Virus record (IMG/VR): IMGVR_UViG_3300032282_004151
Span: 1-64,000 of that record
Length of the DNA stretch: 64,000 nt
Source of the DNA: a virus
Strand: one strand, 5' to 3'
Under the pieces are notes generated by a model. That model was not told the origin of the DNA. It made no database searches and saw only the letters and a list, made by a program, of their open reading frames with translations. Shown here piece by piece: positions 10,137 to 53,181 of the stretch. The translations under genes and the position numbers were made by a program. Every line of letters starts with the position of its first letter. Position 1 is the stretch's first letter.

Positions 10137-10143
10137 GATATAT

Positions 10144-35342: not shown

Positions 35343-36530
35343 ATGGCAACATACAGTGCTTCATTGTACAACTGGTGGGACGCGACGACGGGCTCGGCGT
35401 TTCAAGGTGGCATACCATCTGACGGTGCGCAGATTACACAATGGTTTGATGCTGGTGTTGGTGGCATTACATTGAACAATGTTGCCGGTGGTAATAAAGT
35501 ATCATATACTGCGAGTGTGCAGAACGGTCAGGGCGCTGTGTTCTTTGCTAATAGCCAAGATAAATTTCTTGATGCTGCATATACTGCATTTAACAACAAG
35601 ACAGAAGCTACAGTTATATTTGCTGGTCGTACACTAACAGCAAGTTTATACCAGCAAGTATTCAGTACAGATAGCAATCAGCTATTTTTAAGAGTATCTG
35701 GCTCACATTGGTGCGTTGGTGCGGCTGGTGCATTTTTCACATCATCCATTGTACCTGATCCAAGTATATCACACGTTTTTACAGTTGTATACAGCGGATC
35801 TGGTGCAACTACTGCGGATAAAATAAAATTTAGAAGAGACGGCGCAGATGTTCCTCTGCATCTTGTATCTGGTAGCATAAGTTCAAGTTTCAATAATACC
35901 GGCACCAGATTTTTGGTTGGTGACAATTCGTCACTCAACTTGGACTTTTATGGATATATTCATGAACTATATGTTTACACAAGTTCATTGACTTCGGCGC
36001 AACTGTCTCAAACTGAAAATTATATCGGTTCAAAATATGCGCTGAATTTGGCTACGCCGACACCAACTCCGACTCCCACAACAACACCTACGCCGACACC
36101 AACTCCGACTCCCACAACAACACCTACGCCGACACCAACTCCAACTCCAACATCAACCAACGCGCCAACACCCACGCCATCATCAACTCCAGAGCCTTCT
36201 CCTACACCAACACCATTGCCATCGGTATGTGCGATTGTATTGTTGGACCGCAAATATACAACAATTCCACTTGGTCAAGAATACGCATATGCAACTCCAG
36301 TAAATGACTCAACGTTTGGATTGTATTATCAATTGTCTTGTACACAGAAAAAGACCAGCTTTGACTATTATGCAATATATCCACCTCTTACGGTGTTTAG
36401 CAGTTATTATAGTTATGTAACATATCTTGGCTTTACGGCGTCATATGATGCAAACACAAAGATTTACTTGAACAAAACTGGCGGATTAGACTGCAGTGAA
36501 AATTTGTTACAAGCAATCTACAGACCTTGA
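35343..36530 (+). CDS. LamG/ConA-like virion protein with Thr-Pro repeat
   Basis: WWDA...[13 protein letters not shown]...SAQ; long (TP)n; late motif at 35329. Confidence 0.75.
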
Positions 36531-36547
36531 TATACTTATATGTACGT

Positions 36548-36742
36548 ATGAACCCAAATATAAAAGAAATTGGAAATGTAATCAAGCAAATGCAAGTTGT
36601 CGGCGCAGTAAGTAATTCGCCAACCTTTAACCAAGCAGCAGCGGACATTGTAAAGCAGGGTATAGTAGATAAAACTAATGCCAGAATGAACTATACTCCC
36701 CAGCTATCAAGACCAATAACAACGCCTAAAAAGCCGCTATAA
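36548..36742 (+). CDS. small late hypothetical protein
   Basis: TACTTATA 7 nt before ATG. Confidence 0.5.
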   Translation: MNPNIKEIGNVIKQMQVVGAVSNSPTFNQAAADIVKQGIVDKTNARMNYTPQLSRPITTPKKPL

Positions 36743-36775
36743 TACGGGTCTTTCATATATTTATATATTAAATAT

Positions 36776-38455
36776 ATGAGCAGAGTACCGTTTGATATCC
36801 AGTTTTTATTAGAAAGCATATTGTCTGAAGACCCAGACAGAGTGTATCTTACTAAAAACTCGGTGGCGAAGTTGCGCAAAGATGGCTCGGATGTGTTCGA
36901 GGATACACTTGATTGGGACACAACCCCTGACGCTATTCCTTTTTATATAGATCAGGAAGAGAACGTGGTTATTTTTTGCAAAATGAATACTCACGGTAGA
37001 ATGGAGAGGGCATTAAGCCACGCCGCTAATGTATCCATAGATAACATAATGTATGAAAGAGATTGTGTTGAAAAAACATACATGAATTGTCATGGCATTT
37101 ATGTAAAATCAGGCATTGATGTTGCAGTTTATTTTTATGGCCTTCCTAAAAGCAATATGGAAGGCATCAAGGAATATTTGAAGGAAAACCGTACACGATT
37201 AAAGCGTTTGAAAATACGCGGTACTGGTGATGAAAGCGAGGCAATCGAGTTGTGCGGAAGAATGTGGTATCAGCACAGCGCAATAAGTTTTTGGAATGAA
37301 AAAGCAAATGTAAGTGGACTATTTAATCTTGTCTTTAGTTTCATGAAGCAATGCGGAATGAACCCAAGCAAATGTGCATATGAGTTTATTGACAGCAAGC
37401 AGATGTTTTCTTACAAGGAACTTAGAGGCAACGTCGATGACAAAGAAAAATTAAGTCCTGAAGAAATCAAAGCATTACAATCAAAGCAGCATTTGGATCC
37501 AAAGGCAAAAGCCAAATTGTTTGGACCAGAATATAAACAAAAGCACAAGGAAAAAGCTGCGAAAAGATTTGATTATCCTGCAAAGGCCGACGCATCAATG
37601 CCTGCACTTGAAGGTAGAATAAAACTGAAGGATCTTATCAAGGAAAGTCCAGATGTAATAATATCGGTTGATGGAAAAACTAATTTGGCGCATTATACTT
37701 CTGGGGATGCAATTGCATTTTTTGCATATCCAAACTTTTCAGCATTAAATCCCGGCGGAGTTCATACCGACATAATGCAGGAGTTTCAAACCGTATATGA
37801 TAATCTTGATCAGATAAACAGCGACCCCTCCGAAAAAAAATATTACGCGAATAGAATATATAAACATGGTGTAATTATTTCAAACGTTGATGATATGTTT
37901 GATGCATTATCTTCTGGTCCATTGCATGATTATATTAAAAGTGAAACTTGGAGAAGTGACGATGAGGATCCGGGCGCGTTTAGGGTAAAGTCCAGTGGAT
38001 TGGGCGGAAGATTGTGGAAAAATAGAAAGCTAATTTCATTTTGGAACAGCAAGGAAGATGTATTAAAAGATTGGAGTTATGTGGAGAAAATGTTCAGAGA
38101 TAATCAATTTGAAATCGGTAATCTCGAAGATTATAATGTAGATTGGATTGAAAGAGATGTTCGTGGTGGCGGAGAACTAACTCCCGCAAGTTCAATATCA
38201 AGCTATCGCAGTGAAAAGAAAGATGATCCCAGCCAACTGAGTTTCCTAGACAAACTTGCTGATGAAAAGCCAATAAGCAAAGAAGAAATCAAGAAGATAC
38301 AGCAAAGATTGCACACTATGTCTGCCCAAGAAAAGAAAAGTGCATTGATGAAACTTGGAGCAACTAACACAAAGGCAGCAGACATTGCAGATAAACTTGG
38401 TATGACCGTGGCAGAATTCAATCACATAATGAATGTGAACGAAGGAGAAGAATAA
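36776..38455 (+). CDS. internally duplicated putative head-internal protein
   Basis: two halves starting LLESILSEDPD / LKDLIKESPD, each with GR.W....ISFWN and PEEIK/KEEIK..Q...H. Confidence 0.7.
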   Translation: MSRVPFDIQFLLESILSEDPDRVYLTKNSVAKLRKDGSDVFEDTLDWDTTPDAIPFYIDQEENVVIFCKMNTHGRMERALSHAANVSIDNIMYERDCVEKTYMNCHGIYVKSGIDVAVYFYGLPKSNMEGIKEYLKENRTRLKRLKIRGTGDESEAIELCGRMWYQHSAISFWNEKANVSGLFNLVFSFMKQCGMNPSKCAYEFIDSKQMFSYKELRGNVDDKEKLSPEEIKALQSKQHLDPKAKAKLFGPEYKQKHKEKAAKRFDYPAKADASMPALEGRIKLKDLIKESPDVIISVDGKTNLAHYTSGDAIAFFAYPNFSALNPGGVHTDIMQEFQTVYDNLDQINSDPSEKKYYANRIYKHGVIISNVDDMFDALSSGPLHDYIKSETWRSDDEDPGAFRVKSSGLGGRLWKNRKLISFWNSKEDVLKDWSYVEKMFRDNQFEIGNLEDYNVDWIERDVRGGGELTPASSISSYRSEKKDDPSQLSFLDKLADEKPISKEEIKKIQQRLHTMSAQEKKSALMKLGATNTKAADIADKLGMTVAEFNHIMNVNEGEE

Positions 38456-38458
38456 TTT

Positions 38459-38992
38459 ATGGCACGTACAATACCTTTACACGGAAATCCAGAAGGAAAT
38501 GTTTTTGGAATGGTTGGAGAAATAATATTATCCGATGATGGAAACTATTATATCAAAGTTTCAAATGACTCAAAGAATACTGGATGGCAAGCAATAGTTT
38601 ATGCCGAAAGTAGTACTCCAACCCCTACACCAACAATAACTCCTACGATAACGCCAACGATAACGTCAACACCAAACCAAGAATCGCCTACGCCAACAAG
38701 TACTTCCACTCCAACCGTTACACCAACAGTTACACCAACGGTGACCGTTACTCCAAGTGAAACTCCTCCAGAACCGTCACCATCTACTGTATATCAATGC
38801 CATAATTATGATTTCTATTATGATCCCGCTGGAGTTTTGTATGGAACATACCATAACTGCGCAGGAACTCTAATATATGCCAATCAGACTGGAACTCCTT
38901 CGACATATGCATATTCAGATTGCGTGGACGATCTTAATTACACAGTTGACATAACTGATGGTACGTCTCAACAACAATCACCTTGCTATTAA
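38459..38992 (+). CDS. virion protein with Thr-Pro repeat
   Basis: HGNPE N-domain + (TP)n + Cys-containing tip. Confidence 0.7.
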   Translation: MARTIPLHGNPEGNVFGMVGEIILSDDGNYYIKVSNDSKNTGWQAIVYAESSTPTPTPTITPTITPTITSTPNQESPTPTSTSTPTVTPTVTPTVTVTPSETPPEPSPSTVYQCHNYDFYYDPAGVLYGTYHNCAGTLIYANQTGTPSTYAYSDCVDDLNYTVDITDGTSQQQSPCY

Positions 38993-38993
38993 A

Positions 38994-39251
38994 ATGAACG
39001 ACGTACTTATTACCAAAACAATACAAGCTTTGTCCGCGTCATTCTCTGACACTAGACCAAGCGTGAATAGCACAAATTTTTATATACAATCAAATGGATC
39101 AAAAATTCCAATTTGGGGATATCGGGTTTATTCAACATACCCAACTAACGGTTTATTCGTTGTACTTACCAGAACAAAAAGCGGAGACAGTTATATCAAT
39201 GCCAATTTAACGGACGATGTATATTATTCGTCAACACCTTTCACAATTTGA
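38994..39251 (+). CDS. hypothetical late protein
   Basis: MNDVLITK ORF between the paralogues. Confidence 0.5.
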   Translation: MNDVLITKTIQALSASFSDTRPSVNSTNFYIQSNGSKIPIWGYRVYSTYPTNGLFVVLTRTKSGDSYINANLTDDVYYSSTPFTI

Positions 39252-39256
39252 TCGTT

Positions 39257-40138
39257 ATGAATAAAGGAATACCAACTCACGGAAATCCAGAATATAGTGT
39301 ATTTGGCATCATAGGTACGACGATTGGTACCGATGAAGGCAAATCGTATTACAAAGAAACTGATGATACAAAGAACATCGGGTGGGTGCAATCATATCCA
39401 ATAACCACTGTAACACCAACTATATCACTTACTCCAACCGAAAATGGAACTCCTACTGTAACACCAACTCCGACGGTTACACCAACGATTACGCCGACTA
39501 TCACTCCTTCAAATCAAGAAACGCAAACGCCTACACCAACAGTCACCGAAACTCCCACGGTTACTCCATCTTTAACTCCAGATTTGACGCCAACAACCAC
39601 CCCAACTCCGACTTCTACACAGGGATTGAGCCCAACACCAACACCAACAGAAACTGTTACTCCAACAACAACCCCGACCCCAACGGTGACACCAAGTACT
39701 CAAATATATTCGTTAACAGTATCTTCCGATGGAAATGGCAGTACCTCGCCGTTTGGAACAAATAGTTATCTTAGTGGAACTTCTGTTATACTATTAGCCA
39801 GTCCAAATGTTGGTTATTTTTTTAATACTTGGGTATTTACAGGAACTCCAGATCCAAGTGATGGCCCTGAGTATGCCAATAGTACAAATATTATAATGAA
39901 TGGAGATAGAACCGCTACTGCATATTTCACCGCTATACCGCAGTCGTATCAAATATACATTACGCGAGATACAATAGGAAATTATGGATTTACGTATAGA
40001 GATAAATTTGGAAACATTCAAAGTACAGGTAGTATAGGCGGAGTTCCAAATTCAACAGAATTCAATGTGGCATGTGGCTATGAGATAATCAGTTACAACA
40101 CTGGTTCGTTTGCAGGGTTGTCAGCAGTTACTTGCTAA
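39257..40138 (+). CDS. virion protein with Thr-Pro repeat and InlB-B-repeat-like domain
   Basis: HGNPE N-domain, ~100-aa T/P tract, YSLTV...GT.V.L.ASP..GY.F..W...TATAYF. Confidence 0.75.
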   Translation: MNKGIPTHGNPEYSVFGIIGTTIGTDEGKSYYKETDDTKNIGWVQSYPITTVTPTISLTPTENGTPTVTPTPTVTPTITPTITPSNQETQTPTPTVTETPTVTPSLTPDLTPTTTPTPTSTQGLSPTPTPTETVTPTTTPTPTVTPSTQIYSLTVSSDGNGSTSPFGTNSYLSGTSVILLASPNVGYFFNTWVFTGTPDPSDGPEYANSTNIIMNGDRTATAYFTAIPQSYQIYITRDTIGNYGFTYRDKFGNIQSTGSIGGVPNSTEFNVACGYEIISYNTGSFAGLSAVTC

Positions 40139-40193
40139 TAAGATATTTCACAAAGACCTTGACTTTGTATATAATGTGTGCATTATTGTACGC

Positions 40194-40391
40194 ATGATGA
40201 ATAACACATCTAATACAAACACAGTCAAACGCGGTCGCGGTCGTCCTCGTAAGGATACCGTTGCCAATATTACCAATAAGAATAAGCCTATTGATAATTC
40301 TATTCCTGCTCTATTAGAACCCAACATTCATGATATCCACGACGAGCTTGTGCGTATGGATAGCTTTGCGTATTCCCGTTATAACGAATAA
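40194..40391 (+). CDS. AT-hook small protein
   Basis: KRGRGRPRK; sigma70-like promoter at 40159. Confidence 0.55.
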   Translation: MMNNTSNTNTVKRGRGRPRKDTVANITNKNKPIDNSIPALLEPNIHDIHDELVRMDSFAYSRYNE

Positions 40392-40413
40392 CACAACAAA
40401 AAACAAAACAAGT

Positions 40414-40605
40414 ATGACAAACACAATCAGTAACACAACTGAGACCAAAATGTATGCCATTTTTCGAAATGGCTTCCGCGTCAGCGATTCGGAGTATGAC
40501 TCCAAGTTGGACGCCCAGCGAGAACTGGACTATTGGGAAAATATCATCAAGCGCCATCCCGATGGTAGCAAGCTTGAGATCCGTCAACTCAACTATCGTC
40601 GTTAA
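40414..40605 (+). CDS. small hypothetical protein
   Basis: RNGFRVSDSEY...YW..II...PDGSK. Confidence 0.55.
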   Translation: MTNTISNTTETKMYAIFRNGFRVSDSEYDSKLDAQRELDYWENIIKRHPDGSKLEIRQLNYRR

Positions 40606-40608
40606 TTT

Positions 40609-40818
40609 ATGACAGGACTACGTCAAAAAATCCTATCGGCTACTTCTGAGGCGGAAGTGAGCAAGCTGATGGAAGAAGGTAAAACATATGAATTTGCGAG
40701 CGTGAAGACTCGGAATTCATGGAAGAGCGCTGCGGCACGCAGGCTGCGGGGAGATGTTTACGCCCCCAAGGTTGTAGATGCTCCTGCAAAGAAGAAAAAG
40801 GTGCGCCGTAGTCGGTAA
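40609..40818 (+). CDS. small basic hypothetical protein
   Basis: 69 aa; followed by terminator GGGGAGG-gaaa-CCTCCCC. Confidence 0.55.
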   Translation: MTGLRQKILSATSEAEVSKLMEEGKTYEFASVKTRNSWKSAAARRLRGDVYAPKVVDAPAKKKKVRRSR

Positions 40819-40852
40819 CAAAAAGGGGAGGGAAACCTCCCCTTATTTTTTT

Positions 40853-41317
40853 ATGAAAAAACTTCCGAAACATGAATGGAAATGGGTTGAATGTGAACTG
40901 GGATACATCAATCCTTTATTTAAGGAAATGTGGCTGCGGTTTGAGCCTATGGTATTTGACAAAGATACCGAAACCGCCGAACTTGAATTGCACAATAATA
41001 ACTTTAGAATTGTGGCAAATCCAAAATTTTGGAAATCATGTGATAGATATAAACAAATATTTATCATCTGCCATGAAATGTGCCATGTGATGTTTGGTCA
41101 TTGGTTAATCGACCCTAAGATGAACAGAGAATGGTGCAACATTGCTCAAGATATTCAGGTCAACGAATTCTTGCTTCATCTGCACTTTAATAAAATGCGT
41201 TTGGTTGGCGACGACTTTGTTACACTTGAACTTGTGTTCAAAGACAAAGCAAATCTTGTAAAGAATAGCCAAGATTATAGGTACTATTATGAACTTTTGA
41301 TGCAGTGTGCATCATAG
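40853..41317 (+). CDS. HExxH metallopeptidase-like (DUF2201-N-like)
   Basis: NPKFW...CHEMCH...NIAQDIQVNE. Confidence 0.7.
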   Translation: MKKLPKHEWKWVECELGYINPLFKEMWLRFEPMVFDKDTETAELELHNNNFRIVANPKFWKSCDRYKQIFIICHEMCHVMFGHWLIDPKMNREWCNIAQDIQVNEFLLHLHFNKMRLVGDDFVTLELVFKDKANLVKNSQDYRYYYELLMQCAS

Positions 41318-41326
41318 TTATAATAG

Positions 41327-41536
41327 ATGAAAGTTGAAATAACAGAGGCAGAGTTAAAAACACGGCAATATAAAGGTGCCGTGTTTATCTGCCGTTCTTG
41401 CAAGGATAACAGTAACAAAATAATGATGTTACGTTATGATGAAAGTAAAGATACTCCAAGGGGAGTATACTACCAATTTTGCAGCGATTGCGTAAAGATG
41501 CTAAAAGACTGTATTCCTTGCAGACTTAGGAAATAG
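41327..41536 (+). CDS. small Zn-ribbon-like protein
   Basis: two CxxC pairs. Confidence 0.5.
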   Translation: MKVEITEAELKTRQYKGAVFICRSCKDNSNKIMMLRYDESKDTPRGVYYQFCSDCVKMLKDCIPCRLRK

Positions 41537-41855
41537 ACGGTGGTAAACTTAATGGAGTTGGGGTAGGCGTTGGATGTTGTTGATTTATTTGAATACTTTC
41601 CCATCTCGGAGGATTGTCTGGGCACCTTGAATGTGGAAGATATAATTTTCCAACCGAACATCCACATTTTCCACACGCACCAAAGTTATTATATGCCTCG
41701 GGTTTCCAATGTGGGCATGCTATGCATATAGTTTTGCGTTGTTGAAATATTTCATCGGATACTCGCTGAAATTTATCGTTGACTGCCCAATTTACGGCGG
41801 CTTGACCTAGACTTTTTGCTTTGTCAATTAAATTTGGTTCTTTGTTCTCTTCCAT
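41526..41855 (-). CDS. DUF6171-like Cys-rich protein with short TP tail
   Basis: RKTICIACP...CGKCGC...CP...W. Confidence 0.65.
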   Translation of the reverse strand: MEENKEPNLIDKAKSLGQAAVNWAVNDKFQRVSDEIFQQRKTICIACPHWKPEAYNNFGACGKCGCSVGKLYLPHSRCPDNPPRWESIQINQQHPTPTPTPLSLPPSIS

Positions 41856-41869
41856 GATATTTATATGTA

Positions 41870-42247
41870 GTGTTCAACACTGATAAAAAATTACAGATAC
41901 CTAAAGAATTTACCCTTTTTGGGCATAAATACAGTGTTGTTATAAAAAAAGATCTGTTTGAAACTGAGGATTGTTATGGTCACGCGGATGATGATTTAAA
42001 ACAAATCGTCCTACAAGATGTCGGTGAAGTCAAGAAGATATATGAAGAGGATGGCAAGACGATTGAAGCAAATATGATCATAACGGAAGAAACAATGATC
42101 GAAACATTTTTTCATGAGGTTGTGCATATCATACTTGATGCGTCTGGAGAAATAGAATTATCCGAAAATGAAAAGTTTGTGAATATAATGGGCAAAGCTT
42201 GGTTAGAAATATATTTATCTTCAACATATGAAAAAGACTCCAAATAA
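41870..42247 (+). CDS. HExxH phage protein
   Basis: ETFFHEVVH...NEKFV; TATTTATA at 41858. Confidence 0.7.
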   Translation: MFNTDKKLQIPKEFTLFGHKYSVVIKKDLFETEDCYGHADDDLKQIVLQDVGEVKKIYEEDGKTIEANMIITEETMIETFFHEVVHIILDASGEIELSENEKFVNIMGKAWLEIYLSSTYEKDSK

Positions 42248-42593
42248 GAAGTCTGGTTCAAAGAAAAAAGAAGTTTATGAAACAATAGAACTTCCGTGTA
42301 ACAACGAAGACATGGAAAGTTATATCAAAGAGCATAGGGTGGAAATAAATAGAAAAATCGTTAACACCATAAATTATGCACTGCGCAATCATTTGGGCGC
42401 TGTTGAAGTATTTTCATTCAAGAACTCAAACTTTGTGGTTGTGTTGAACCGAAAGTATTTCAAGGAAAGCTTGGAGAACATACTTGAATTCAGTCTTGGT
42501 ACAGAAGATTTTGATACCTGCGTCAAGGCTAAGAGTATCATAAAAAAGATAGATAAGTTGGACTATATGATTTTGTATAAAAAAATAAAATAA
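42228..42593 (+). CDS. hypothetical protein
   Basis: 121-aa ORF before phoH. Confidence 0.6.
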   Translation: MKKTPNKKSGSKKKEVYETIELPCNNEDMESYIKEHRVEINRKIVNTINYALRNHLGAVEVFSFKNSNFVVVLNRKYFKESLENILEFSLGTEDFDTCVKAKSIIKKIDKLDYMILYKKIK

Positions 42594-42596
42594 ACT

Positions 42597-43364: not shown

Positions 43365-43451
43365 TTTTTGTATAAAAACTTCTTTATTATAAAACCTCGT
43401 CAAATGGTATATATTTTTCCATTTGATTGATATTTATAGTGAAAAGATATC

Positions 43452-45977
43452 ATGTCAAATCAGAAAACAACCGAACTTAGGCGCTTAGTATTGGGTGATT
43501 TGGTGCCCGGTGATCTAATACCAATAGTAGACGTAAGTGCCAGCACGAGTCCAACTGGAGAAACCAAGGCGGTTACTGCGGCTACGTTTGCGCAATACAT
43601 AATTTCGGGTGGATTTCTTGAAATGTATTCTCCGGTGTTTCCACACCAAACGGCAAATGGATTGGCATTCGACGAGTCCATCACTCCAGCCGATGCTCCA
43701 TATGAACAAGAAAATTGGAGATGCTATACAGAGTTTCCTTCAATCGGAACCGAATTCAGTTTGGCAGTCAGAGCATTTGTACCATCTTCATTCAATGCAG
43801 CGCCAACAGAGAAAGTATTGATCGGTGTTGGTACGGATTTGAATGACATTACTGGATCTGCACAGTGTGCATATATTGGTGTCCAATCATATGATTTGAT
43901 TGGATTTACCAACGATGGTACAAACACAAAATTGATTGTGTTTCCAGATTATTTTTTGGATTTTCCAAATAGGGCATTTGAAACAATAATGACAAGAGAT
44001 GCGGCTGGAACATTGACACTGTTCTTGAATAGCACCGCAGTTGGTACACTAAGCGGTCCAATCACAGCAATTACCAGTTCATATTTGGTATTGGGAAATG
44101 GAAGTGCATATTACAACAATCTTGCATGCACTATTTATGAGGCACATGTTTATACAGCATCTCTGAGCGAAGCTCAAGTTAATCAAATATTCTACGGAGG
44201 TACAAAAAATTCAGGAGATGGATTATTTGCTTCATATAAATCCATTAATCTAAATCCCGGCCCAACACAGTGGCTAGACTCGGTTGGAAATCATCATTTG
44301 TTGCTTCCTATCACTGGAGCATATGCTACAAATCCAGACAAGGAATTCAGTTTAAGATTTCATAGCGATGGATCGTCATCGTACCTTGGAAATGGAACCA
44401 AGAGAGATGTTCTACCAGAAAATTATGTATTGACCGATGCATTTGTATATTCGACTGGCTCTCCATTGCTTTCTATTGGATCCTCTGCATCGGTAGCAGG
44501 ACCGGGAGAAAGTGCAATAGACTCTTGGAACAATAACAGAGTTCCATTGACATACGCACAATACAGCAGAAACAATCTTCCGTTAATTGACTTAGGTGTG
44601 GCACACAAAGACAGAAGTATTTATGTGTTTTATAGCGCAAGTGCAGCACCATGCACATTTAGCTTTGAAGGGTATGTATCGGAATATGGTCCAGTGTATT
44701 ATATCCCACCATCCCAAACACCTACACCTACTCCAACGCCAACGATTACACCTTCGACGACTATAACTCCAACTCCATCAATTACGCCGACGAATACATC
44801 GACTCCAACGGTGACACCAACGATAACTCAGACTCCTACCGTAACTCCTACACCGGGTCTAAGTCCTACGGCGACACCAACAATAACACCAACGAGAACA
44901 CCAACGGTAACTCCTACTCGCACGACTGGTCTACCTCCAGTTAGCCCATCCGTAACTCCAACACGTACAGCAACTCCTACACCTACATCTCCTACATATA
45001 CAGTGCAGGCTAACAACAATACTGGAGGAAGTTCTGTATGCTTTAATGGTAACTGCAGTGGAACTCCAATCGCCGGAGTATTGGCGGGAACATATTCATT
45101 GGTGGCAACTCCTCTTAGCGGATATGGATTTACGAGTTGGACAATAAACAGCGGAACTCCAACAATTGCCAATATCGATAGTGCAAATACAACAATAACA
45201 ATAAATGGATCGACGACTGTAACTGCTAACTTCACAAACACAACATATTCAGTAACATTGAATGTTGGGGCCGGAGGATCCGCGCTTACCGTCAGTGGAA
45301 TAGGGTCTGCACCGGGAACATATACGGGCATATTGCCGGGATCATATAACTTGGGATCAACAGCTGCGCCGGGATATGAATTTGTAAGCTATAATGTCAC
45401 CGGTGGGTCAACAAATACTCCAATACAAGCTACGGTGCTCAATGTAACTGGTAATTGCACAGTAACAGGCGTGTGGAGTCTAATACCTTCTCCGTCTCCT
45501 ACGCAAACACCTACAGTAACACCTACAGTAACACCGACACCAACAACTCCAACATATAAGATCAATGTAATCAATGGCGATGGTGGTTCGAGCGCATGTT
45601 TTGATTTGCACTGCGATCCGAGCGATTATTACGCAACGGCAGGAACTCATACGCTATCCGCAACTCCGCTTTCCGGATTTACATTTAGCAGTTGGTCTGG
45701 ACCGGGAGTGCAAAATCCATCAAGCGCAACATCAAATGTGTCGGTGACTGGTACTGCAACATATACAGCGAACTTTGATCCAATATGCTATAGTGTAAGT
45801 ATTTACTATGATGTAAACGGCCAAGCCGCATTGTCGGGTGAAAATTGCGCTGGAAGTGATGTATCATTTGATACCGGAACGGGTGCGGGCATCGAAGGTG
45901 AATTGCATGGCACCTACTGTCTAAGGGATGGATTTAATATCATTCACGGAACATTCAGCAACTTAGGCAGTTGCTAA
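43452..45977 (+). CDS. fibre/decoration virion protein: LamG-like + Thr-Pro tracts + InlB-B-repeat-like domains
   Basis: KTTEL...DLIPIVD...ETK N-terminus typical of fibres; two TP tracts; repeated ATP.SG..F.SW. Confidence 0.75.
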
Positions 45978-45993
45978 AAGGTTCCTACATATT

Positions 45994-46269
45994 ATGATTA
46001 ACAACCAAATAATATTTTCTGGCTCAAAGGCAGATACAATTCAGTATCTTAATACCAATTTTTCGTTATTAACCAATAAACCAAACAATCCAAACGTCGG
46101 AGATAGATGGATATTGGAAAACGAAAAAGGTCAGCCCGGCGCATTTTCTTGGTCTGAGCAATTGAATAGTCTCAATTTGTCCGGATCAATAAGAAATTTA
46201 GTTTATAAAGAGTGCATAGCTCCAAATGTGTCGTCATCACTTTGGATTAAAGTAAAACTCACAGAATAA
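45994..46269 (+). CDS. hypothetical late protein
   Basis: 91-aa ORF. Confidence 0.5.
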   Translation: MINNQIIFSGSKADTIQYLNTNFSLLTNKPNNPNVGDRWILENEKGQPGAFSWSEQLNSLNLSGSIRNLVYKECIAPNVSSSLWIKVKLTE

Positions 46270-46331
46270 TATAATTAAAATATTTATTATAACTTGTATA
46301 TATATGATATAAATCTATAATACAAAGTTAT

Positions 46332-47636
46332 ATGAATAATAATGGTTATATCTTCATTCAAATTGCGGCATACCGCGATCCTCAATTGGTGCCAACAGTC
46401 AAGGACTGTATAGCTAAGGCAAAAAATCCAGATAAGTTGGTATTTTGCATTGCATGGCAACACTCGCCAGACGAAAACATCGACGAGATCAAAAGTTTGC
46501 CAAACGTGAAGATAATTGACATTCCATATTTGGAAAGCAAAGGCGCATGTTGGGCGCGCAATCAAATTCAGCAAAGATATGATGGTGAAGAATATACTCT
46601 TCAACTAGACTCACATCATAGATTTGTTGAAAATTGGGATGAGCTTGTGATTGGAATGTATAAGCAGCTGCAAGATATGGGACACAAGAAACCATTGCTG
46701 ACTGGTTACATTCCATCATTTGATCCAGACAATGACCCTGCTGGCAGAACACAATCGCCGTGGAGAATGGACTTTGATAGATTTATTCCAGAAGGTGCTG
46801 TATTTTTCTTACCCGCTACGATTGATGATTGGAAACAAAGAGATTGCCCAGTAACTTCTCGTTTTTATTCCGCGCATTTCTGTTTTACTTCTGGCCAATT
46901 CTGTTTGGAAGTTCCACACGATCCTGAATATTATTTTCACGGCGAGGAAATCAGCATCGCGGTTCGCGCATATACACATGGGTATGATCTATTTCATCCA
47001 CACCGTATTATTGCATGGCATGAATATACACGCAAAGGCAGAACCAAGCATTGGGATGATCACAGTGGATCAAACAAAGACAAGATTTCGGACAAAAAGG
47101 ATTGGGGAGAGAGAAATTCTCAATGTCATAAGAGGAATAGAATATTGTTCTCTATGGACGGAGAGGATTATAACACAATAGAGTGGGGCAAATATGGATT
47201 TGGCAAAGAGAGAACGTTGAGAGATTATGAGAAATATGCAGGACTTCATTTCAAGAAGCGTGCAGTGCAACAAGAAACATTAGACAAGAAATACCCACCG
47301 AACAACTTTGTTAAATATGAGACAGAAGAAGAGTGGGAAAAATCATTCACTTCGGTTTTCAAGCATTGCATTGATTTGCAACTATCTCAATTCCCGCACG
47401 ATGATTATACTTTTTGGTGTGTTGCATTTGAACGTCAAGATGGCAGCTTAATGCACCGCAAGGACGCGGATAAAAATGAAATACAAAGAATTTTGGGAGA
47501 AGCTCGCAATCCGAACGGAGACAAATATATCAAGCTGTGGAGAGAGTTCAATTGTGAAGGCAAACCGCATCATTGGGTCGTATGGCCACACAGCGAGTCC
47601 AAAGGTTGGTGTGAAAGAATTACTGGAAATTTATAA
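46332..47636 (+). CDS. GT60-like polypeptide/hydroxyproline alpha-GlcNAc transferase
   Basis: IFIQIAAYRDP, GACWAR, QLDSHHRF..WD (DxH), YFHGEE, RAYTHGYDLFHP. Confidence 0.85.
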   Translation: MNNNGYIFIQIAAYRDPQLVPTVKDCIAKAKNPDKLVFCIAWQHSPDENIDEIKSLPNVKIIDIPYLESKGACWARNQIQQRYDGEEYTLQLDSHHRFVENWDELVIGMYKQLQDMGHKKPLLTGYIPSFDPDNDPAGRTQSPWRMDFDRFIPEGAVFFLPATIDDWKQRDCPVTSRFYSAHFCFTSGQFCLEVPHDPEYYFHGEEISIAVRAYTHGYDLFHPHRIIAWHEYTRKGRTKHWDDHSGSNKDKISDKKDWGERNSQCHKRNRILFSMDGEDYNTIEWGKYGFGKERTLRDYEKYAGLHFKKRAVQQETLDKKYPPNNFVKYETEEEWEKSFTSVFKHCIDLQLSQFPHDDYTFWCVAFERQDGSLMHRKDADKNEIQRILGEARNPNGDKYIKLWREFNCEGKPHHWVVWPHSESKGWCERITGNL

Positions 47637-48500
47637 ATGAATATCAAGGTATCTTTTCAAAAAGAAAATAGCGATTGGAGTCAACCGCATGTATATTGGA
47701 AATTTTTCCAATGGTTTGAGCGCGAATATTCCAAATTTAATATTCAATTTGAAGATACCTCAAATGCATCAAACAAGGATCCCGGGGGACCAAACTCTCC
47801 GCACATAATAACAATCAGAAATTTAGATACAAAAAAATATATCGTGGTTTCGTATTGGGATAGATGTTTTGATTTTGTAAACCCGCCGTGGGATCATGAA
47901 AATCTAGTTGAAATCATAACGTCGATGTCGATAGACAAGTCTAAAAACATAGAAAAAAAGGTGTCACCTTTTTCGTATCTAATGTGGTTAAAAAGCGGAG
48001 AGATGCGGGCATTCATACGCCACAAGGAATTTGTAAGTAAGCAAAATAATGATTTGTTCTTTAGGGGACTTGTGTATGGATTTAGAAAAGAATTGATGGC
48101 GATTGCCAAGAACAATATCACCGAAGAAAAAATTGATATTGATGATTACTTCAAAGAATTATCAAACAACAAAATATGTTTGAGCTTGAATGGTGCGGGA
48201 GAAATATGCCACAGAGACATGGAAATATTGGCTGTGGGATCCGTTCTTTTTCGCCCAATATTAGAACCATGTTTTCACTCTCCATTGATAGAAGGTGTGC
48301 ATTATATTGGATTTGAAAAATCAAATGATCCAAAGACTCAGTGGGAAATAATCACTAGAAAATTCAATCAAATTAAACATAATGATGATTATTTGAAATT
48401 CATTGCGAATAATGGATATAAATGGTATCTGGAAAATGGCACAATAGAAAACAATGTCGAGATATTGAAAAAAATTGTAAATCCAAGTGTGTTGTTATAA
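47637..48500 (+). CDS. putative glycosyltransferase (exostosin/CgeB-like C-terminus)
   Basis: FFRG, KICLSLNGAGEICHRDMEI, HYI, IANNGYKWY. Confidence 0.65.
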   Translation: MNIKVSFQKENSDWSQPHVYWKFFQWFEREYSKFNIQFEDTSNASNKDPGGPNSPHIITIRNLDTKKYIVVSYWDRCFDFVNPPWDHENLVEIITSMSIDKSKNIEKKVSPFSYLMWLKSGEMRAFIRHKEFVSKQNNDLFFRGLVYGFRKELMAIAKNNITEEKIDIDDYFKELSNNKICLSLNGAGEICHRDMEILAVGSVLFRPILEPCFHSPLIEGVHYIGFEKSNDPKTQWEIITRKFNQIKHNDDYLKFIANNGYKWYLENGTIENNVEILKKIVNPSVLL

Positions 48501-49438
48501 TGACCAAAATAAGAGTACATAACCCATGCAATGCTCATACCAGATATTACAGGTGTTATAATCTGTTTTGGGACAAGTTTACGGACCATCTTAAAACGGT
48601 ATTTGATGTAGATGAAAACAGATACTTCGAGTATGCGCACATGCACAGGTTTCCAGTGAAGTTGCAAAAAGGCACAACTGATAATTTTTTGCTGATGGAG
48701 TGTGAGTATGTTGTTGAAAATTTGGACACTGGTGAGTTTGTGGTTTTGTCGGTATCTGACGATTTGAGTCACGCCACTATAAATGAAAAACACAATCCAT
48801 ACCTCAAAAAGGTATTAATTTCTCAATTTTTGCCAAAAAAGATATCCGATCACGTCGGTGATTTTTTGTACAAATATTCTCCTTGGACATATTTCCAATC
48901 ATCCATTGAAGATTTGGAGCCTTATTACAAAAAAAGATTGGAAATGGATCCATCAATTGATACTATATATTTCAGAGGCACTTCCTTGGAAGATAGAAAG
49001 ATAATTCATTATATAGATAAAAACATCATCACTAATTTCAACCCAATCGTACCAGACCAATATTTCAATGAGATGATAAACCACAAGGTTGCATTATCTG
49101 TGGATGGCAGGGGAGAATTTTGTTATAGGGATATCGAATGTCTGGCAATCGGAATTCCCATGCTAAGATTTGAGTATGCCAGCAAATTTTATAATGAACT
49201 TGTTCCAAACTATCATTATATATCAATACCAAGACCGTCAGATATGGGCTTATATAGACTTGGAAATGAAAGGCACGCGAAAATTTTGGAAAACCGATAC
49301 GGAGAAGTAATAAACGACAAAGAATTTTTGAAGTTTATTGCGAAGAATGGTAGAAAATACTACGAGGAAAACTGCGAGATGAACCAAGTCATAAAGAATA
49401 CTTTTAAACTTTTAAACCTAGATTTTTGGATAAAATAA
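48500..49438 (+). CDS. putative glycosyltransferase, paralogue of upstream gene
   Basis: YFRG, KVALSVDGRGEFCYRDIEC, HYI, IAKNGRKYY. Confidence 0.65.
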   Translation: MTKIRVHNPCNAHTRYYRCYNLFWDKFTDHLKTVFDVDENRYFEYAHMHRFPVKLQKGTTDNFLLMECEYVVENLDTGEFVVLSVSDDLSHATINEKHNPYLKKVLISQFLPKKISDHVGDFLYKYSPWTYFQSSIEDLEPYYKKRLEMDPSIDTIYFRGTSLEDRKIIHYIDKNIITNFNPIVPDQYFNEMINHKVALSVDGRGEFCYRDIECLAIGIPMLRFEYASKFYNELVPNYHYISIPRPSDMGLYRLGNERHAKILENRYGEVINDKEFLKFIAKNGRKYYEENCEMNQVIKNTFKLLNLDFWIK

Positions 49439-49439
49439 T

Positions 49440-50591
49440 ATGAAAATGTCAATTGGAGATGTGGTGGATAGATATTCAATTTGCAGACTAAAGCGAGAAC
49501 GCCTCGGTTTGGATAATGAAAAAGAAATCAATGAATTGAAAAATGAGATGGGCAAATATCAGGGCATTGACTCATATGTAGAAAAGTTGTATACAGTTAA
49601 TGGTAATATATGGGATTTGGAATCCGACATTAGAAAAGAAAAAGAGGCTACTTTAGGACTGGAAGAAGTTGGAAGACGTGCCATAAAAATAAGGGAATTG
49701 AATAATATAAGAGTTGGATATAAGAACGAAATCAATTCAATATATAAAGAAGGATTTATAGAAATAAAATTAAATCACGGCAGCGCAAAAGATCCTTCGT
49801 TGGTCATTTCATTGACTACGGTACCAGAGCGATTGGCGAACCCAAATCAAGATGGGCTTTTTAAAGTCATAGAAAGACTATGTGAACAAAACGACCAAGA
49901 CTATGAAGTACATTTTAATATACCATATGTGTATAGTGTAACAAAAGAGCCGTATATTATTCCAGATTGGTTGGAAAATTTTAAATTGAAGTATCGCCAC
50001 TTGAAAGTTTTTAGAACAGAAGATTTTGGTCCACCAACAAAGTTTGTCCCAACTCTCAAGAGATTATCAAACCCAGAAACAATAATGCTCGTCGTTGATG
50101 ACGACATGATTTATTACAAAGAAATGGTTTCTGAACACAGGAAGTATCAGGCTCAGTTTACAGACTCGGTGATATGTTACGAAGGCAGAGGATGCAAAAA
50201 AATGCTACACGAGGGAGACATACGAGATCATTGGATAATTTGTGTCACTCAAGTCAGAGAAGTGTCGGCACTGCAGCATTATAAATCCGCATCATACAAA
50301 AAGAAATTATTTACTCCTACATTTGATGAATTGTATTTGGGAAAAACCTTTTCCGACGACGTATTGGTTAGCAGATATTTTTCAGACAACGGAATAAAAT
50401 TATATGTTGTTCCGTATGAACCTCACATTCATCTGTTTGATACCAGAGAAAACTGGGATAAAAATCAGGGAGTTACCACCTTTCCAATAGAAAAATACTC
50501 ACACAGTATTGAAGGAACTGGATGCCAAAAGCCAGAAATGTTAAAGATACAACCCCGTTTCTATGAAGCCCCCGATCTTGGAAAAAAATAA
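49440..50591 (+). CDS. DUF6165-like domain fused to GT-A glycosyltransferase
   Basis: SIGDVVDRYSI...IWDLE.DIR; VISLTTVPER, DFGPPTK, VDDD, SDDV. Confidence 0.7.
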   Translation: MKMSIGDVVDRYSICRLKRERLGLDNEKEINELKNEMGKYQGIDSYVEKLYTVNGNIWDLESDIRKEKEATLGLEEVGRRAIKIRELNNIRVGYKNEINSIYKEGFIEIKLNHGSAKDPSLVISLTTVPERLANPNQDGLFKVIERLCEQNDQDYEVHFNIPYVYSVTKEPYIIPDWLENFKLKYRHLKVFRTEDFGPPTKFVPTLKRLSNPETIMLVVDDDMIYYKEMVSEHRKYQAQFTDSVICYEGRGCKKMLHEGDIRDHWIICVTQVREVSALQHYKSASYKKKLFTPTFDELYLGKTFSDDVLVSRYFSDNGIKLYVVPYEPHIHLFDTRENWDKNQGVTTFPIEKYSHSIEGTGCQKPEMLKIQPRFYEAPDLGKK

Positions 50592-50592
50592 T

Positions 50593-51282
50593 ATGAATTA
50601 TATACAATATTGGGATGAGAACATAGTGCAGGGGCATGTAAATTCGGAAATAGCTGTCGTTTTAGATTATCTGCACAAAAACAAAAAGTTAAAAATAAAT
50701 TACATTGATATTGGAGCGAATGTTGGCAAATATTATGATGTAATTTCCCAGTCTGGAATATCCGTTGAAAAGTGTATTATGGTTGAAGCTTCCGTGGAGC
50801 TATACAGTTACATGAAAAATAAGTTTAAAAATATACAAGGATGTAAGATAATCAATCACGCCGTGTCAGATAAAGATGGTACTATTAGATTTGAGTCGAA
50901 TATAAATCAAATATATGCAAACAAGGAGCTTAACCGTTCTATAAATCTAGGAGTGCAGAAAATAACCAATTCAGATAGTGGTGTGGATACTAACATGATT
51001 TCGGGAGAAAGTTTACTTACAAAGTTTGTAGATTTTATAAATGAAATTGATTTAATTAAAATTGACACGGAAAATAGAGATTATAACATACTAGACTCTA
51101 TGACAAATGTCATACAAAATTTAAATACAAAACCATTCATTGTATTGGAGCACAATTATCATAATGATATGAGCGAAGAGAATGCACGAAGAATATACGA
51201 GACATTCATCCATAAATGCAAATATACAGGACTTCCGTTTGACCAATTGCATGGAGTGGTATACTTGACTCCCCAAATTTAA
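50593..51282 (+). CDS. FkbM family methyltransferase
   Basis: IDIGANVG, VEAS, AVSD, LIKIDTE. Confidence 0.85.
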   Translation: MNYIQYWDENIVQGHVNSEIAVVLDYLHKNKKLKINYIDIGANVGKYYDVISQSGISVEKCIMVEASVELYSYMKNKFKNIQGCKIINHAVSDKDGTIRFESNINQIYANKELNRSINLGVQKITNSDSGVDTNMISGESLLTKFVDFINEIDLIKIDTENRDYNILDSMTNVIQNLNTKPFIVLEHNYHNDMSEENARRIYETFIHKCKYTGLPFDQLHGVVYLTPQI

Positions 51283-51289
51283 AAATTAT

Positions 51290-52984
51290 ATGCATAATAC
51301 AACATTGGTTACTGGCCTTTTTGATTTGAAGCGAGGTGAGATGGATACGTCATTTAAGCGTCCATTTTCACAGTATTTGGTGCATTTTGAGAAATTGCTC
51401 AAGGCTTGCAAAGACACTCCGATGATCGTGTTTATTGACAAAGAACATGAAGCTTTTGTTCAAAAAGCAAGAGAAGGATCTGTTGGAACAGATATACGCT
51501 TCAAGTCCGCGAATGATTTCAGAACATGGTTCTCATTCTTTGACAAAGTAAACAATATCAGACAGAATTCAGAATGGTATAATCAAGTTGGGTGGTTATC
51601 AGAGTCTACACAAGCAAAGTTGGAGCTATATAATCCGTTGGTCATGAGCAAGATGTTCATGCTCAATGATGCGTGCATATTCAATCCATTTGACACAGAT
51701 CATTTTTGTTGGATAGATGCAGGACTTACCCAAACTGTGCATTCTGGTTACTTTAGCCATGATAATGTAATCGAAAAGATGGAACCTTTGCTTAAGAAGT
51801 TTCTATTCGTGTGCTATCCATATGAAACCAATTCCGAAATACATGGGTTCAAGATAGAAGGTATGAACAAATATGCCAATGCAAAAGTCAATAGGGTTGC
51901 AAGAGGTGGATTTTTCGGAGGACATAAGAACGTCATATCTCAAATAAATTCAGCATATTATTCACTGTTGGATCAGACATTAAACGAGGGATATATGGGA
52001 ACGGAGGAGAGCATATTTTCACTACTCACTTATCAAAAGCCAGAGTTGGTAAATATTGAAATGATAAATGGCGATGGGTTGATGGGAACATTCTTTGAGC
52101 GCATGAAAAACATGCCAGTTCCAAAGAAGGAAATTGCAATATCAAAATCGCAAGTTCCAGACTCTGTGGAATATTTTCAAAGTGAAGAAGAAGTTGAAAT
52201 GAACCGTTCTGGGAAAAAAACATATCTTTATATTGTCACGTTCAACTTTCCACAACAACTTCAACTGTTATTGGATACAATTCAATCTTCAAACCCAGAA
52301 TTGCTGAACGTTGAAAGAAAGATACTCATAGACAACAGTATCGATACATCAACAGTTCCACAATATGATGAAATTGCAAAAAAGTACAATTTTGAGATTG
52401 TTCGCAAAGGTAATCTCGGAGTGTGCGGTGCAAGACAATGGGCAGCTGAACATTTTCATGAAAATGGTGGAAAATATATGGTTTGGTTTGAGGACGACAT
52501 GCTTATGGTGGACAATGTATCACTGTGCAAAAATGGATTGAATATGCATATGGACAATTGGTTGAGCAAATGCAAAAAGATCATCGAGCATGAAAATTTG
52601 GACTTCATCAAAATCTCATTCAGCGAATTCTATGGGGACCACCACAAGCAATGGTCGTGGCATAATGTACCAGAGCATATCAGAAAGAAGTATTTTCCAG
52701 ACGGAACTCATCGCATGCGTTGGAAAGAGTCTGGCTGCATTGATGGGTTAAGTTATTTGATAGGAGAAGTGTATTATAGCAATTGGCCGTCGGTGATGAC
52801 AAGGGCAGGAAATTACAAGATATTCTTGGAAACAAAATATGCTTCCCCGTTTGAGCAGACAATAATGTCCCATTGCTATCAATTACAGAAGAACGGCAGA
52901 ATTCGTAGTGGTGTATTGATGGCCAGTTTGGTCAATCACAATCGAGTTCATCATTATTCAAGAGAAATAAGAAAAGAAGTTTAA
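51290..52984 (+). CDS. HtrL/YibB(WlaTC)-like glycosyltransferase fused to GT2-like domain
   Basis: TTLVTGLFDL, NPFDTDHFCWIDAG, GGFFGG, GTEE; IDNS...NLGV..AR...FEDD. Confidence 0.75.
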   Translation: MHNTTLVTGLFDLKRGEMDTSFKRPFSQYLVHFEKLLKACKDTPMIVFIDKEHEAFVQKAREGSVGTDIRFKSANDFRTWFSFFDKVNNIRQNSEWYNQVGWLSESTQAKLELYNPLVMSKMFMLNDACIFNPFDTDHFCWIDAGLTQTVHSGYFSHDNVIEKMEPLLKKFLFVCYPYETNSEIHGFKIEGMNKYANAKVNRVARGGFFGGHKNVISQINSAYYSLLDQTLNEGYMGTEESIFSLLTYQKPELVNIEMINGDGLMGTFFERMKNMPVPKKEIAISKSQVPDSVEYFQSEEEVEMNRSGKKTYLYIVTFNFPQQLQLLLDTIQSSNPELLNVERKILIDNSIDTSTVPQYDEIAKKYNFEIVRKGNLGVCGARQWAAEHFHENGGKYMVWFEDDMLMVDNVSLCKNGLNMHMDNWLSKCKKIIEHENLDFIKISFSEFYGDHHKQWSWHNVPEHIRKKYFPDGTHRMRWKESGCIDGLSYLIGEVYYSNWPSVMTRAGNYKIFLETKYASPFEQTIMSHCYQLQKNGRIRSGVLMASLVNHNRVHHYSREIRKEV

Positions 52985-53181
52985 ATATTATTTCTCATAG
53001 AGATAAAAAGACTCTCTATGAGCCAAGCGGACCCCCTGCGTGTGACAAATGGGCACCTTAATCGGTGCCCATTTCGTTTACCTCATAGGAGAAATACGGA
53101 AAATCGTACTGGCACGAAATGTGATATAGTGTATATGTCGGTGTCCATAATGGAGCCGATTTAAATAAAGGATACAAATAT

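Follow-up and report, generated by a model that had tools for sequence, protein, structure and literature searches.

Very few cases are documented in which phage particles are glycosylated by enzymes that phages themselves encode, and the rules of this process have yet to emerge. In mycobacteriophages, glycans are found at the C-ends of the capsid and tail-tube subunits (Freeman et al. 2023, cited in PMC12619734). Virions of the jumbo phage XacN1 display at least two Schiff-staining bands, which its authors propose to be made by two annotated transferases, one of them being ORF334 (PMC5852040). Moraphages, a group of aquatic jumbo phages, feature four core glycosyltransferase groups for which the available text assigns no target (PMC12619734). 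Virus-encoded, host-independent glycosylation of capsids or fibrils is also described for giant viruses, namely for the chlorovirus protein Vp54 and the mimivirus fibrils (PMC9614988, PMC5408694). The characterised enzymes of glycosyltransferase (GT) family GT60 are polypeptide transferases: the one of T. cruzi adds alpha-linked N-acetylglucosamine (GlcNAc) onto Thr of a Thr/Pro-rich peptide in a Mn2+-dependent reaction and is homologous to a Golgi enzyme of Dictyostelium (PMC3769586). We analysed a stretch of 64,000 nucleotides (the window, to which coordinates refer unless another genome is named) out of the 72,316 bases of IMG/VR record IMGVR_UViG_3300032282_004151 (G000). Genes for proteins with long Thr-Pro (TP) tracts are followed there by a six-gene cluster led by a GT60-type enzyme, an arrangement that may serve the glycosylation of the phage's own fibre-like proteins.

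Organization of the six-gene cluster

The six genes lie head to tail between positions 46332 and 52984, with gaps of 0-7 nucleotides or overlaps. The cluster and the open reading frame (ORF) that precedes it are:

45994-46269, + strand: 91-aa ORF between the largest TP gene and GT60; no family and no relative in the 82 related viral loci described below
46332-47636, + strand: GT60-type (PF11397) glycosyltransferase, 434 aa; PF11397 E = 6.4e-73
47637-48500, + strand: putative glycosyltransferase, 287 aa; paralogue of the next gene, no Pfam family
48500-49438, + strand: putative glycosyltransferase; probable start at 48500 within an ORF that opens at 48422; GT90 match under cut-off (E = 0.001)
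49440-50591, + strand: DUF6165-like N-part and probable GT-A-like part, 383 aa; DUF6165 match under cut-off (E = 0.0097)
50563-51282, + strand: FkbM-family S-adenosylmethionine-dependent methyltransferase, candidate for O-methylation of a sugar; PF05050 E = 5.1e-11, TIGR01444 E = 7e-15
51290-52984, + strand: HtrL_YibB-like domain fused to GT2, 564 aa; PF09612 E = 2.1e-20, PF00535 E = 2.2e-5

The original prediction for this DNA had placed a six-gene operon right after the largest TP gene. The tight packing of the cluster was verified, but the 91-aa ORF intervenes between the two. The genes 47637-48500 and 48500-49438 are indeed paralogues, as had been claimed, with 27% identity (E = 8e-24). 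Neighbours of the second one in the protein atlas carry PF13524 (Glyco_trans_1_2) and PF05686 (GT90); a sequence search of the PDB found no relative, its sole match being a chance-level hit to TCTP (E = 0.017). The predicted DUF6165-GT-A gene stood in part: its DUF6165 domain remains below threshold, while the GT-A assignment is a weak lead provided by its atlas neighbours, which are viral clusters with GT2 in 15-28% of their members, and by a DDD motif in the translation. The FkbM methyltransferase and the HtrL-GT2 fusion were both recovered by Pfam matches, the former also by TIGR01444, the GT2 half of the fusion scoring 24.9 bits (cut-off 23.3) when residues 271-564 were scanned alone. PDB sequence searches with the DUF6165-like and HtrL-GT2 proteins gave no match. 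None of the six products has a transmembrane or hydrophobic segment, in a scan in which the neighbouring membrane protein scored clearly. Inspection for transcription signals was limited to a consensus scan, which found no strong terminator on the + strand between 43452 and 52984, and 71 promoter-like sites against 69.6 expected, which is chance level.

Family and fold of the GT60 enzyme

The product of 46332-47636 matches PF11397, which we take to be equal to CAZy family GT60, with 246.7 bits (cut-off 21; E = 6.4e-73) over profile positions 98-351 plus 2-44. The GT60 assignment of the original prediction is thereby confirmed. The protein also matches phrog_24687 (E = 3.7e-176). Residues D93-S94-H95-H96 are invariant in an alignment of 17 sequences, and D93-S94-H95 occupies the place expected for the metal motif of GT-A enzymes, a role that its position suggests. 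This D-S-H triplet is presumably the equivalent of the DxH motif of GT27 enzymes.

The structure predicted by AlphaFold (pLDDT, the predicted local distance difference test score, of 82) shows a GT-A domain (residues ~1-335) followed by a small alpha/beta C-domain (~340-434). The best Foldseek matches of this model are the polypeptide N-acetylgalactosamine (GalNAc) transferases ppGalNAc-T2, T1, T4, T7, T10 and T12, PGANT9 and TgGalNAc-T3. In VIA-align the top 29 entries are all polypeptide GalNAc-transferases, of human, fly or Toxoplasma origin, with Z of 17.5-21.0; most of the top entries superpose over 252-279 residues with a root mean square deviation of 3.4-4.0, and sequence identity is 12-15%. 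Generic GT-A enzymes rank below them (Z of at most 16.9). The kinship to polypeptide GalNAc transferases that the original prediction had cited for GT60 enzymes is thus seen in the nearest solved structures by fold; a sequence search of the PDB with the GT60 alignment found no solved structure. A complex prediction of the enzyme with residues 45-118 of the 177-aa TP protein described below, run without controls, gave no answer (score 0.01, mark 0.32) and is evidence neither way. Because family and fold both point to the initiation of peptide O-glycosylation, we propose that 46332-47636 encodes an initiating polypeptide O-N-acetylhexosamine (HexNAc) transferase.

Thr-Pro tract proteins of the window

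Tracts were searched in six frames using 20-residue windows with T+S ≥ 7, P ≥ 6 and T+S+P ≥ 14, in ORFs of at least 60 aa. They were found in exactly four ORFs, all within 35.3-46 kb, and the same scan found none in the remaining ~53 kb of the window. These are the four proteins for which long TP tracts had been predicted, each having 49-116 tract residues:

35343-36530, + strand: TP protein, 395 aa; LamG-like N-part, 67-aa tract (36036-36236), Cys-bearing C-domain
38459-38992, + strand: TP protein, 177 aa; short N-domain, tracts of 21+28 aa (38615-38677 and 38711-38794), Cys-bearing C-domain
39257-40138, + strand: TP protein, 293 aa from ATG; ORF opens at TTG 39248; tracts of 21+49 aa (70 in total)
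43452-45977, + strand: largest TP protein, 841 aa; three tracts of 34+55+27 aa (116 in total)

The 302 tract residues comprise 120 T (40%), 90 P (30%), 24 S, 18 V and 12 I, arranged with a T-P-T-x period in which x is Val, Ile or Ser. Since codons are mixed and every Thr and Pro codon is used, the repeat appears to be maintained at the protein level and not as a DNA microsatellite.

The protein encoded by 35343-36530 has no transmembrane segment and its Laminin_G_3 match (E = 0.0014) is under cut-off. Relatives of 38459-38992 are present in 19 of the 82 related loci, frequently immediately upstream of GT60. An N-domain of the same kind is found in 39257-40138, together with one InlB B-repeat (Ig-like) domain (Flg_new_2, E = 5.4e-11). 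In 43452-45977 a 415-aa N-module with a LamG-like jellyroll is followed by TP tracts placed between InlB B-repeat domains (Flg_new_2, E = 1.3e-19) and by a Cys-rich end. Across 13 sequences, taken from 12 related loci, this N-module retains 39-61% identity; some relatives have it as a stand-alone gene without the TP tail. Its predicted model (pLDDT 66) has a confident LamG-like jellyroll core, whose structural neighbours in BFVD are phage proteins of LamG-like type, including one named tail fibre. More broadly, the TP proteins of the window and of related phages carry LamG, Ig-like, SprB, beta-propeller and DUF285 domains, and TP genes are found next to the baseplate module in the window, in the related genomes G001 and G002, and in XacN1.

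Shorter tracts had also been predicted in three other genes. Those of the first two are real:

41526-41855, - strand: 109-aa Cys-rich protein; short terminal TPTPTP run; phrog_13558, in which function is unassigned
53799-55475, + strand: membrane and coiled-coil protein; short TP runs in the C-part

The third, 59333-60553, is marginal, with few TP/PT pairs at its C-end. The product of 53799-55475 has hydrophobic segments (KD19 of 2.32), a long coiled coil and a C-part rich in Thr-Pro and Glu-Pro; it is encoded between Hsp20 and peptide deformylase and has relatives in G001, G002 and G003. This membrane protein is probably not a virion fibre.

Two further observations concern the surroundings and relatives of these genes. 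A DUF2201_N/SprT-like metallopeptidase (E = 5e-8) is encoded at 40778-41317, amid the TP genes, and its PHROG label "HNH endonuclease" looks wrong. Giant TP proteins of related phages (7004-9679 on the - strand of locus L101 in G002; loci L045, L069 and L126) display the SprB repeat, which is a motif of the Flavobacterium gliding adhesin, a DUF5122 beta-propeller, DUF285 and up to three LamG domains; such giants include ORFs of 3304 aa and 3337 aa.

Association of GT60 with Thr-Pro tracts in viral genomes

More than 7,599 relatives of the GT60 enzyme were found in a metagenome protein collection, where scoring was confined to the 8,000 top candidates; IMG/VR yielded at least 593 stretches that code for one. 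The neighbourhood of GT60 was studied in 82 mutually related viral loci, made of the best 80 of more than 593 matches and two close relatives. A TP-tract ORF lies within 10 kb of GT60 in 60 of them. The tract is in the adjacent upstream ORF on the same strand in 37/76 loci and in the adjacent downstream ORF in 0/81. Tract occupancy per kb reaches 34-46% in the 3 kb upstream, compared to 4-16% in the other upstream bins and at 3-10 kb downstream; no tracts occur in the stretch that holds the cassette, namely the initial 3 kb after GT60. Adjacency persists in 26/56 clusters when GT60 sequences are collapsed at 90% identity. With tracts masked, eight families can be told apart among the adjacent TP ORFs. 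In G001 (complete, 297 kb), four of the six tract ORFs are within 12 kb around GT60.

GT60 enzymes remain 64% identical even between phages whose baseplate proteins share 26% identity or where no baseplate counterpart is detected, and TP proteins are present in each of them. This difference suggests movement of the module between lineages. The arrangement of the TP gene relative to GT60 also varies: it can be upstream, downstream or on the opposite strand.

For whole records, an exact (TP)4 pattern proved too strict for counting tracts, and a protein-level scan and the pattern TPTxTPT were used instead. DNA coding for TPTxTPT is found in 37/48 GT60-positive records and in 1/40 random viral records of similar size (Fisher 1e-13), with up to 129 matches per GT60-positive record and one match overall for a reversed-pattern control. 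Conversely, PF11397 is present in 9/43 records picked by a (TP)5 pattern and in 1/40 random ones (p 0.015); in five of these nine a tract is located within ~5 kb of GT60. The co-occurrence check suggested along with the original prediction thus gave a strong signal in viral contigs, and likewise in named jumbo phages and bacterial genomes. The named jumbo phages split cleanly, the pattern being present in 3/3 with GT60 and in 0/5 without:

XacN1: GT60 present, 51 TPTxTPT matches
Xoo-sp13: GT60 present, 51 TPTxTPT matches
RAS14: GT60 present, 22 TPTxTPT matches
Mel-JY01: GT60 absent, 0 TPTxTPT matches
LR756508: GT60 absent, 0 TPTxTPT matches
immuto 3-5A: GT60 absent, 0 TPTxTPT matches
Atu_ph07: GT60 absent, 0 TPTxTPT matches
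PA5oct: GT60 absent, 0 TPTxTPT matches

A separate case is found at 9304-12540 of a complete 108-kb viral genome (G030, locus L376), where a divergent GT60-like gene (339 aa, E = 1e-21) lies directly downstream of the gene for a 735-aa fibre-like protein with (Val-Gly)n tracts, whose C-end reads like the Hint/intein type.

The cassette between GT60 and HtrL-GT2

A relative of HtrL is present in 72 of the 82 viral loci, always downstream of GT60 and in the same orientation, at a distance of 0.6-6.4 kb. In a set of 50,697 phage records, HtrL-GT2 relatives of full length are confined to the four named phages in which GT60 is also found; the Stenotrophomonas phages RAS14 and CM1 are cultured carriers of GT60. 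The two genes bound the cassette and are conserved, while the genes inside it vary widely: 60 gene families are found between GT60 and the HtrL relative in the 72 loci (L003-L084). The 37 families scanned are those present in at least two loci, with one two-locus family omitted. They include GT10 (fucosyltransferase-like), GT25, GT34, GT7C, a collagen-type PLOD GT, GT2 and an RXYLT1-like family, as well as a carbamoyltransferase, FkbM and CmcI-type methyltransferases and a gene combining HAD with a nucleotidyltransferase (sugar-nucleotide synthesis). No flippase, polymerase or lipid-carrier enzyme is found among these 37 families and the six products of the window have no transmembrane segment; a locus for a lipid-linked polysaccharide (O-antigen or capsule) would be expected to encode a priming transferase that acts on a lipid carrier, a flippase or ABC exporter, and a polymerase. 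The pattern has the look of a glycan with a constant start and finish and a varied middle.

GT60 and Thr-Pro tracts in bacteria

Bacterial genomes and metagenome-assembled genomes likewise contain GT60 relatives, in at least 338 stretches. In the 78 loci kept for analysis, a relative of HtrL is present in 37, and a strict TP ORF in 28, at no more than 1.5 kb from GT60 in 15. Tracts occupy 30/412 of the kb-bins near GT60 as compared to 4/539 of the far ones. At four loci, VgrG spikes of type VI secretion systems with long (TP)n tails are encoded 1-6 kb from GT60 (Ralstonia L442, Paraburkholderia L439, Dyella L461 and Paraherbaspirillum L421). They have the domain composition Phage_GPD + Phage_base_V + Gp5_trimer_C, and the GT60 relatives beside them lack the C-domain, the match ending at residue 339-385. 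It is possible that the secretion spike VgrG is glycosylated. Other bacterial neighbours are a giant glycoside-hydrolase-like protein (Sphingomonas), a crAss muzzle-like protein (in a Saprospiraceae contig) and BNR, LamG and fn3 proteins.

Origin and genomic context of the window

The completeness of record G000 was estimated at 23% by CheckV, which identifies the window as a piece of a jumbo phage. By its baseplate wedge protein (61491-63446), its closest annotated relatives are the Microcystis phage Mel-JY01 (44% identity), an uncultured 484-kb phage and the Flavobacterium "immuto" phages. A megablast of positions 43452-53000 against the 50,697 phage records found none matching. At 1821-3063 a heme oxygenase (E = 7e-18) adjoins a ferredoxin-dependent bilin reductase (E = 1.5e-14); cyanophages carry pairs of this type for pigment synthesis. 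The left part of the window also has genes for SSB, a helicase and six tRNAs and the following one:

4767-5393: ThyX

PhoH, Hsp20 and peptide deformylase are likewise encoded in the window. From this gene set, a cyanobacterial host is inferred, and the source is probably a fragment of a jumbo cyanophage.

The base composition of the window is uneven: a block at 12000-34000 has a GC content of 0.45-0.52 and its flanks of 0.32-0.41. This GC-rich block carries the six tRNA genes (Met twice, Lys, Thr-UGU, Glu and Leu) and mostly small ORFs without family; at 13279-14697 long ORFs overlap on both strands. The tRNA-Thr (UGU) decodes ACA, the Thr codon most frequently used in the tracts (50/120).

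Proposed mechanism and alternative explanations

We consider it fairly probable that the cluster is a phage-encoded, cytoplasmic, mucin-type O-glycosylation module, a variant of virion glycosylation. Two traits of mucin-type systems are at hand, namely dense Thr/Pro tracts as candidate acceptors and a predicted initiating transferase linked to them by genome position. Taking the enzyme families, the fold and the genomic linkage as the observed basis, the acceptor, the sugar, the order of steps, the place of the acceptors in the virion and the benefit are proposed as follows. The soluble GT60 enzyme would add the first HexNAc, most likely GlcNAc drawn from the UDP-GlcNAc pool of the host, to Thr residues in the TP tracts before assembly. 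The acceptors would be fibre proteins of the phage itself, built from several lectin- and Ig-like domains. The glycan would then be extended by the soluble transferases (the two paralogues, the GT-A-like protein and the HtrL-GT2 fusion) and methylated by the FkbM enzyme. Because inner cassette genes are swapped freely between the fixed GT60 and HtrL-GT2, the glycan may differ between phages. The modification could provide stiff, protease-resistant and hydrated linkers, or a variable glycan surface. A route through hydroxyproline-linked sugars was dropped: no prolyl 4-hydroxylase (PF13640) was found in G000, G001 and G003, and G002 has one sub-threshold match.

Several observations weigh against this reading. 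The biochemistry of PF11397 is limited to eukaryotic members. The label "late structural-type" given to the TP proteins in the original prediction was not upheld: what was found are LamG and Ig-like domains and weak PHROG matches to virion structural proteins, for 35343-36530 (E = 2e-4 and 5e-4) and for 2/26 related TP ORFs, and a tblastn search with the 415-aa N-module against the 50,697 phage records gave zero matches. Since the membrane protein 53799-55475 and the Cys-rich protein 41526-41855 share short TP runs, TP is possibly just the favoured linker of this lineage. In 22/82 viral loci there is no TP ORF within 10 kb of GT60. Three of the four tract ORFs of G002 (324 kb) lie just downstream of the baseplate genes, ~120 kb from GT60, and the four of G003 (complete, 226 kb) are located 8 to 150 kb from it. 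The TPTxTPT pattern is missing from 11/48 GT60-positive records, all of them fragments that are 8-43% complete. GT60 is in turn missing from 34/43 pattern-positive records, including four of the five that are at least 90% complete; this set of 43 is not purely TP because the (TP)5 DNA pattern also catches (Val-Gly)n tracts on the opposite strand, as it did once, in G030. Finally, the p-values are too low, given that loci related to one another entered the counts as independent ones. The real argument for linkage is its recurrence across arrangements and lineages, not the p-values. Overall, the observation behind the original prediction is confirmed and its interpretation is partly supported, the methyl capping and bottle-brush function that it envisaged staying conjectural.

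The cluster might instead glycosylate other phage proteins, such as those of capsid, tail or decoration, the TP tracts being plain flexible linkers. This is unlikely, although it agrees with the glycosylation sites of mycobacteriophages at the C-ends of capsid and tail-tube subunits (cited in PMC12619734), with the tracts that occur in records without GT60, and with the Schiff-positive bands of XacN1, whose identity is not stated in the available text and supplement of the paper. It leaves unexplained why TP ORFs adjoin GT60 both in phages and, within 1.5 kb, in bacteria, and why the named jumbo phages split so cleanly. A functional link could also be lacking altogether, TP tracts and GT60 being independent hallmarks of aquatic and soil jumbo-phage lineages with inherited synteny. 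The mutual relatedness of the 82 loci, the fact that two TP-ORF families account for 32/41 adjacent cases and the distant TP genes of G002 and G003 speak for it; nevertheless we regard it as quite improbable, given the GT60 enzymes that stay 64% identical alongside TP proteins where the baseplate proteins have diverged, the several arrangements of the two genes and the recurrence of the linkage in bacteria whose record titles point to at least eight phyla.

Targets outside the virion were also weighed. That the transferases modify the host envelope (lipopolysaccharide (LPS) core, capsule or another glycoconjugate), for instance to block superinfection or to change the cell surface, with the TP link as mere lineage inertia, appears rather improbable. 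The HtrL_YibB and GT25 families are annotated with LPS synthesis, which counts against a mucin-type role; LPS-core transferases are likewise soluble or peripheral, and serotype-changing phage GTs are known (PMC12619734). Yet the nearest structures of the lead enzyme are all polypeptide transferases, no membrane, flippase or lipid-carrier component was found in the cassette families scanned, and the same GT60 and HtrL-GT2 pair is found across phages with very different hosts (Xanthomonas, Stenotrophomonas and probably a cyanobacterium); this reading would also leave the position of TP ORFs near GT60 unaccounted for. Glycosylation of phage DNA (hypermodified bases) against restriction is a classic role of phage GTs, fulfilled by diverse GT families (PMC12619734, PMC13326640), but is extremely improbable here. 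The cluster has fibre-like genes on one side and the baseplate module on the other rather than genes of nucleotide metabolism around it, and a glycan made by six enzymes, including a methylation step, would be very elaborate for DNA. The ThyA-type hydroxymethylase family (PF00303) is absent from G000 and from the complete relatives G001 and G003, other routes to modified bases not having been searched; the window has ThyX only and G002 an ordinary-looking ThyA. We know of no DNA substrate for any PF11397 enzyme.

Returning to mucin-type glycosylation of TP tracts, a simple rule is suggested, namely the pairing of a GT60-type enzyme with TP tracts, whose apparent reach extends over more than 593 contigs of viruses, four jumbo phages in culture and, in bacteria, at least 338 genome stretches. 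Should it hold true, prokaryotes and phages would possess a mucin-type pathway, and the variable transferase sets of huge phages would be explained. The rule would also mark sugar-coated fibre segments, which bears on how stable a phage is and how it adheres, as well as on host range and immune recognition, and provide a soluble enzyme set for glyco-engineering of Thr-Pro linkers in bacteria. A much bolder extension, which we advance as speculative and rather doubtful, is that GT60 and TP tracts form a widespread cytoplasmic prokaryotic and phage mucin-type system that decorates linkers of phage fibres and of bacterial surface and injection proteins, including the (TP)n tails of VgrG. Its hypervariable cassette would write a phage-specific coat under diversifying selection, and the system could be the prokaryotic root of eukaryotic GT60/GT27 initiation.

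Comparison with known systems

One cultured phage for comparison is XacN1. Its ORF334 is a relative of the GT60 enzyme (52% identity) and it also encodes a relative of HtrL-GT2 (41% identity). Its genes are found in the order baseplate wedge genes, a 3313-aa ORF with a TP tract, ORF326-329 (one of them GT9), an HtrL-like gene, two unknowns, a carbamoyltransferase and GT60. XacN1 shares with the window phage the GT60 and HtrL-GT2 pair with a tailoring gene in between and the many TP tracts, and it has Schiff-positive virion bands. It differs in lineage and host and by its tailoring enzyme, a carbamoyltransferase in place of FkbM. The available text of the XacN1 paper ties neither the GT60 family nor TP tracts to the bands (PMC5852040).

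In mycobacteriophages, as proposed here, virion proteins receive their glycans in the cytoplasm of the bacterium from transferases that the phage encodes. The window phage differs by its GT60-led enzyme set and by its candidate sites, which are long TP tracts in fibre-like proteins. Giant viruses, according to the available texts, are distinct in being eukaryotic viruses that use other GT families and other linkages. Moraphages have Bacteroidota as predicted hosts in the available description, whereas the light-harvesting genes of the window point to a cyanobacterial host.

At the enzyme level, the eukaryotic GT60 proteins (T. cruzi OGNT, Dictyostelium Gnt2/Gnt1) belong to the same Pfam family, PF11397; such enzymes initiate mucin-type O-glycans at Thr of Thr/Pro-rich peptides (PMC3769586). 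Dictyostelium Gnt1 is cytoplasmic, as the phage enzyme is predicted to be. The phage enzyme, whose activity is predicted, differs from them in being soluble without a membrane anchor, in having an extra 95-residue C-domain and in being encoded by phages and bacteria. The animal ppGalNAc-Ts of family GT27, which initiate mucin-type O-glycosylation, provide its nearest solved structures, with similarity over ~250-280 residues of the catalytic domain; sequence identity to them is 12-15% and no ricin-type lectin domain was identified in the phage protein. In the literature searched, no publication was found that ties GT60/PF11397 to TP proteins in phages or bacteria. Phage-encoded virion glycosylation and the GT60 enzymes of protists are thus already known, and the new element is the pairing of GT60 with TP tracts in phages and bacteria.

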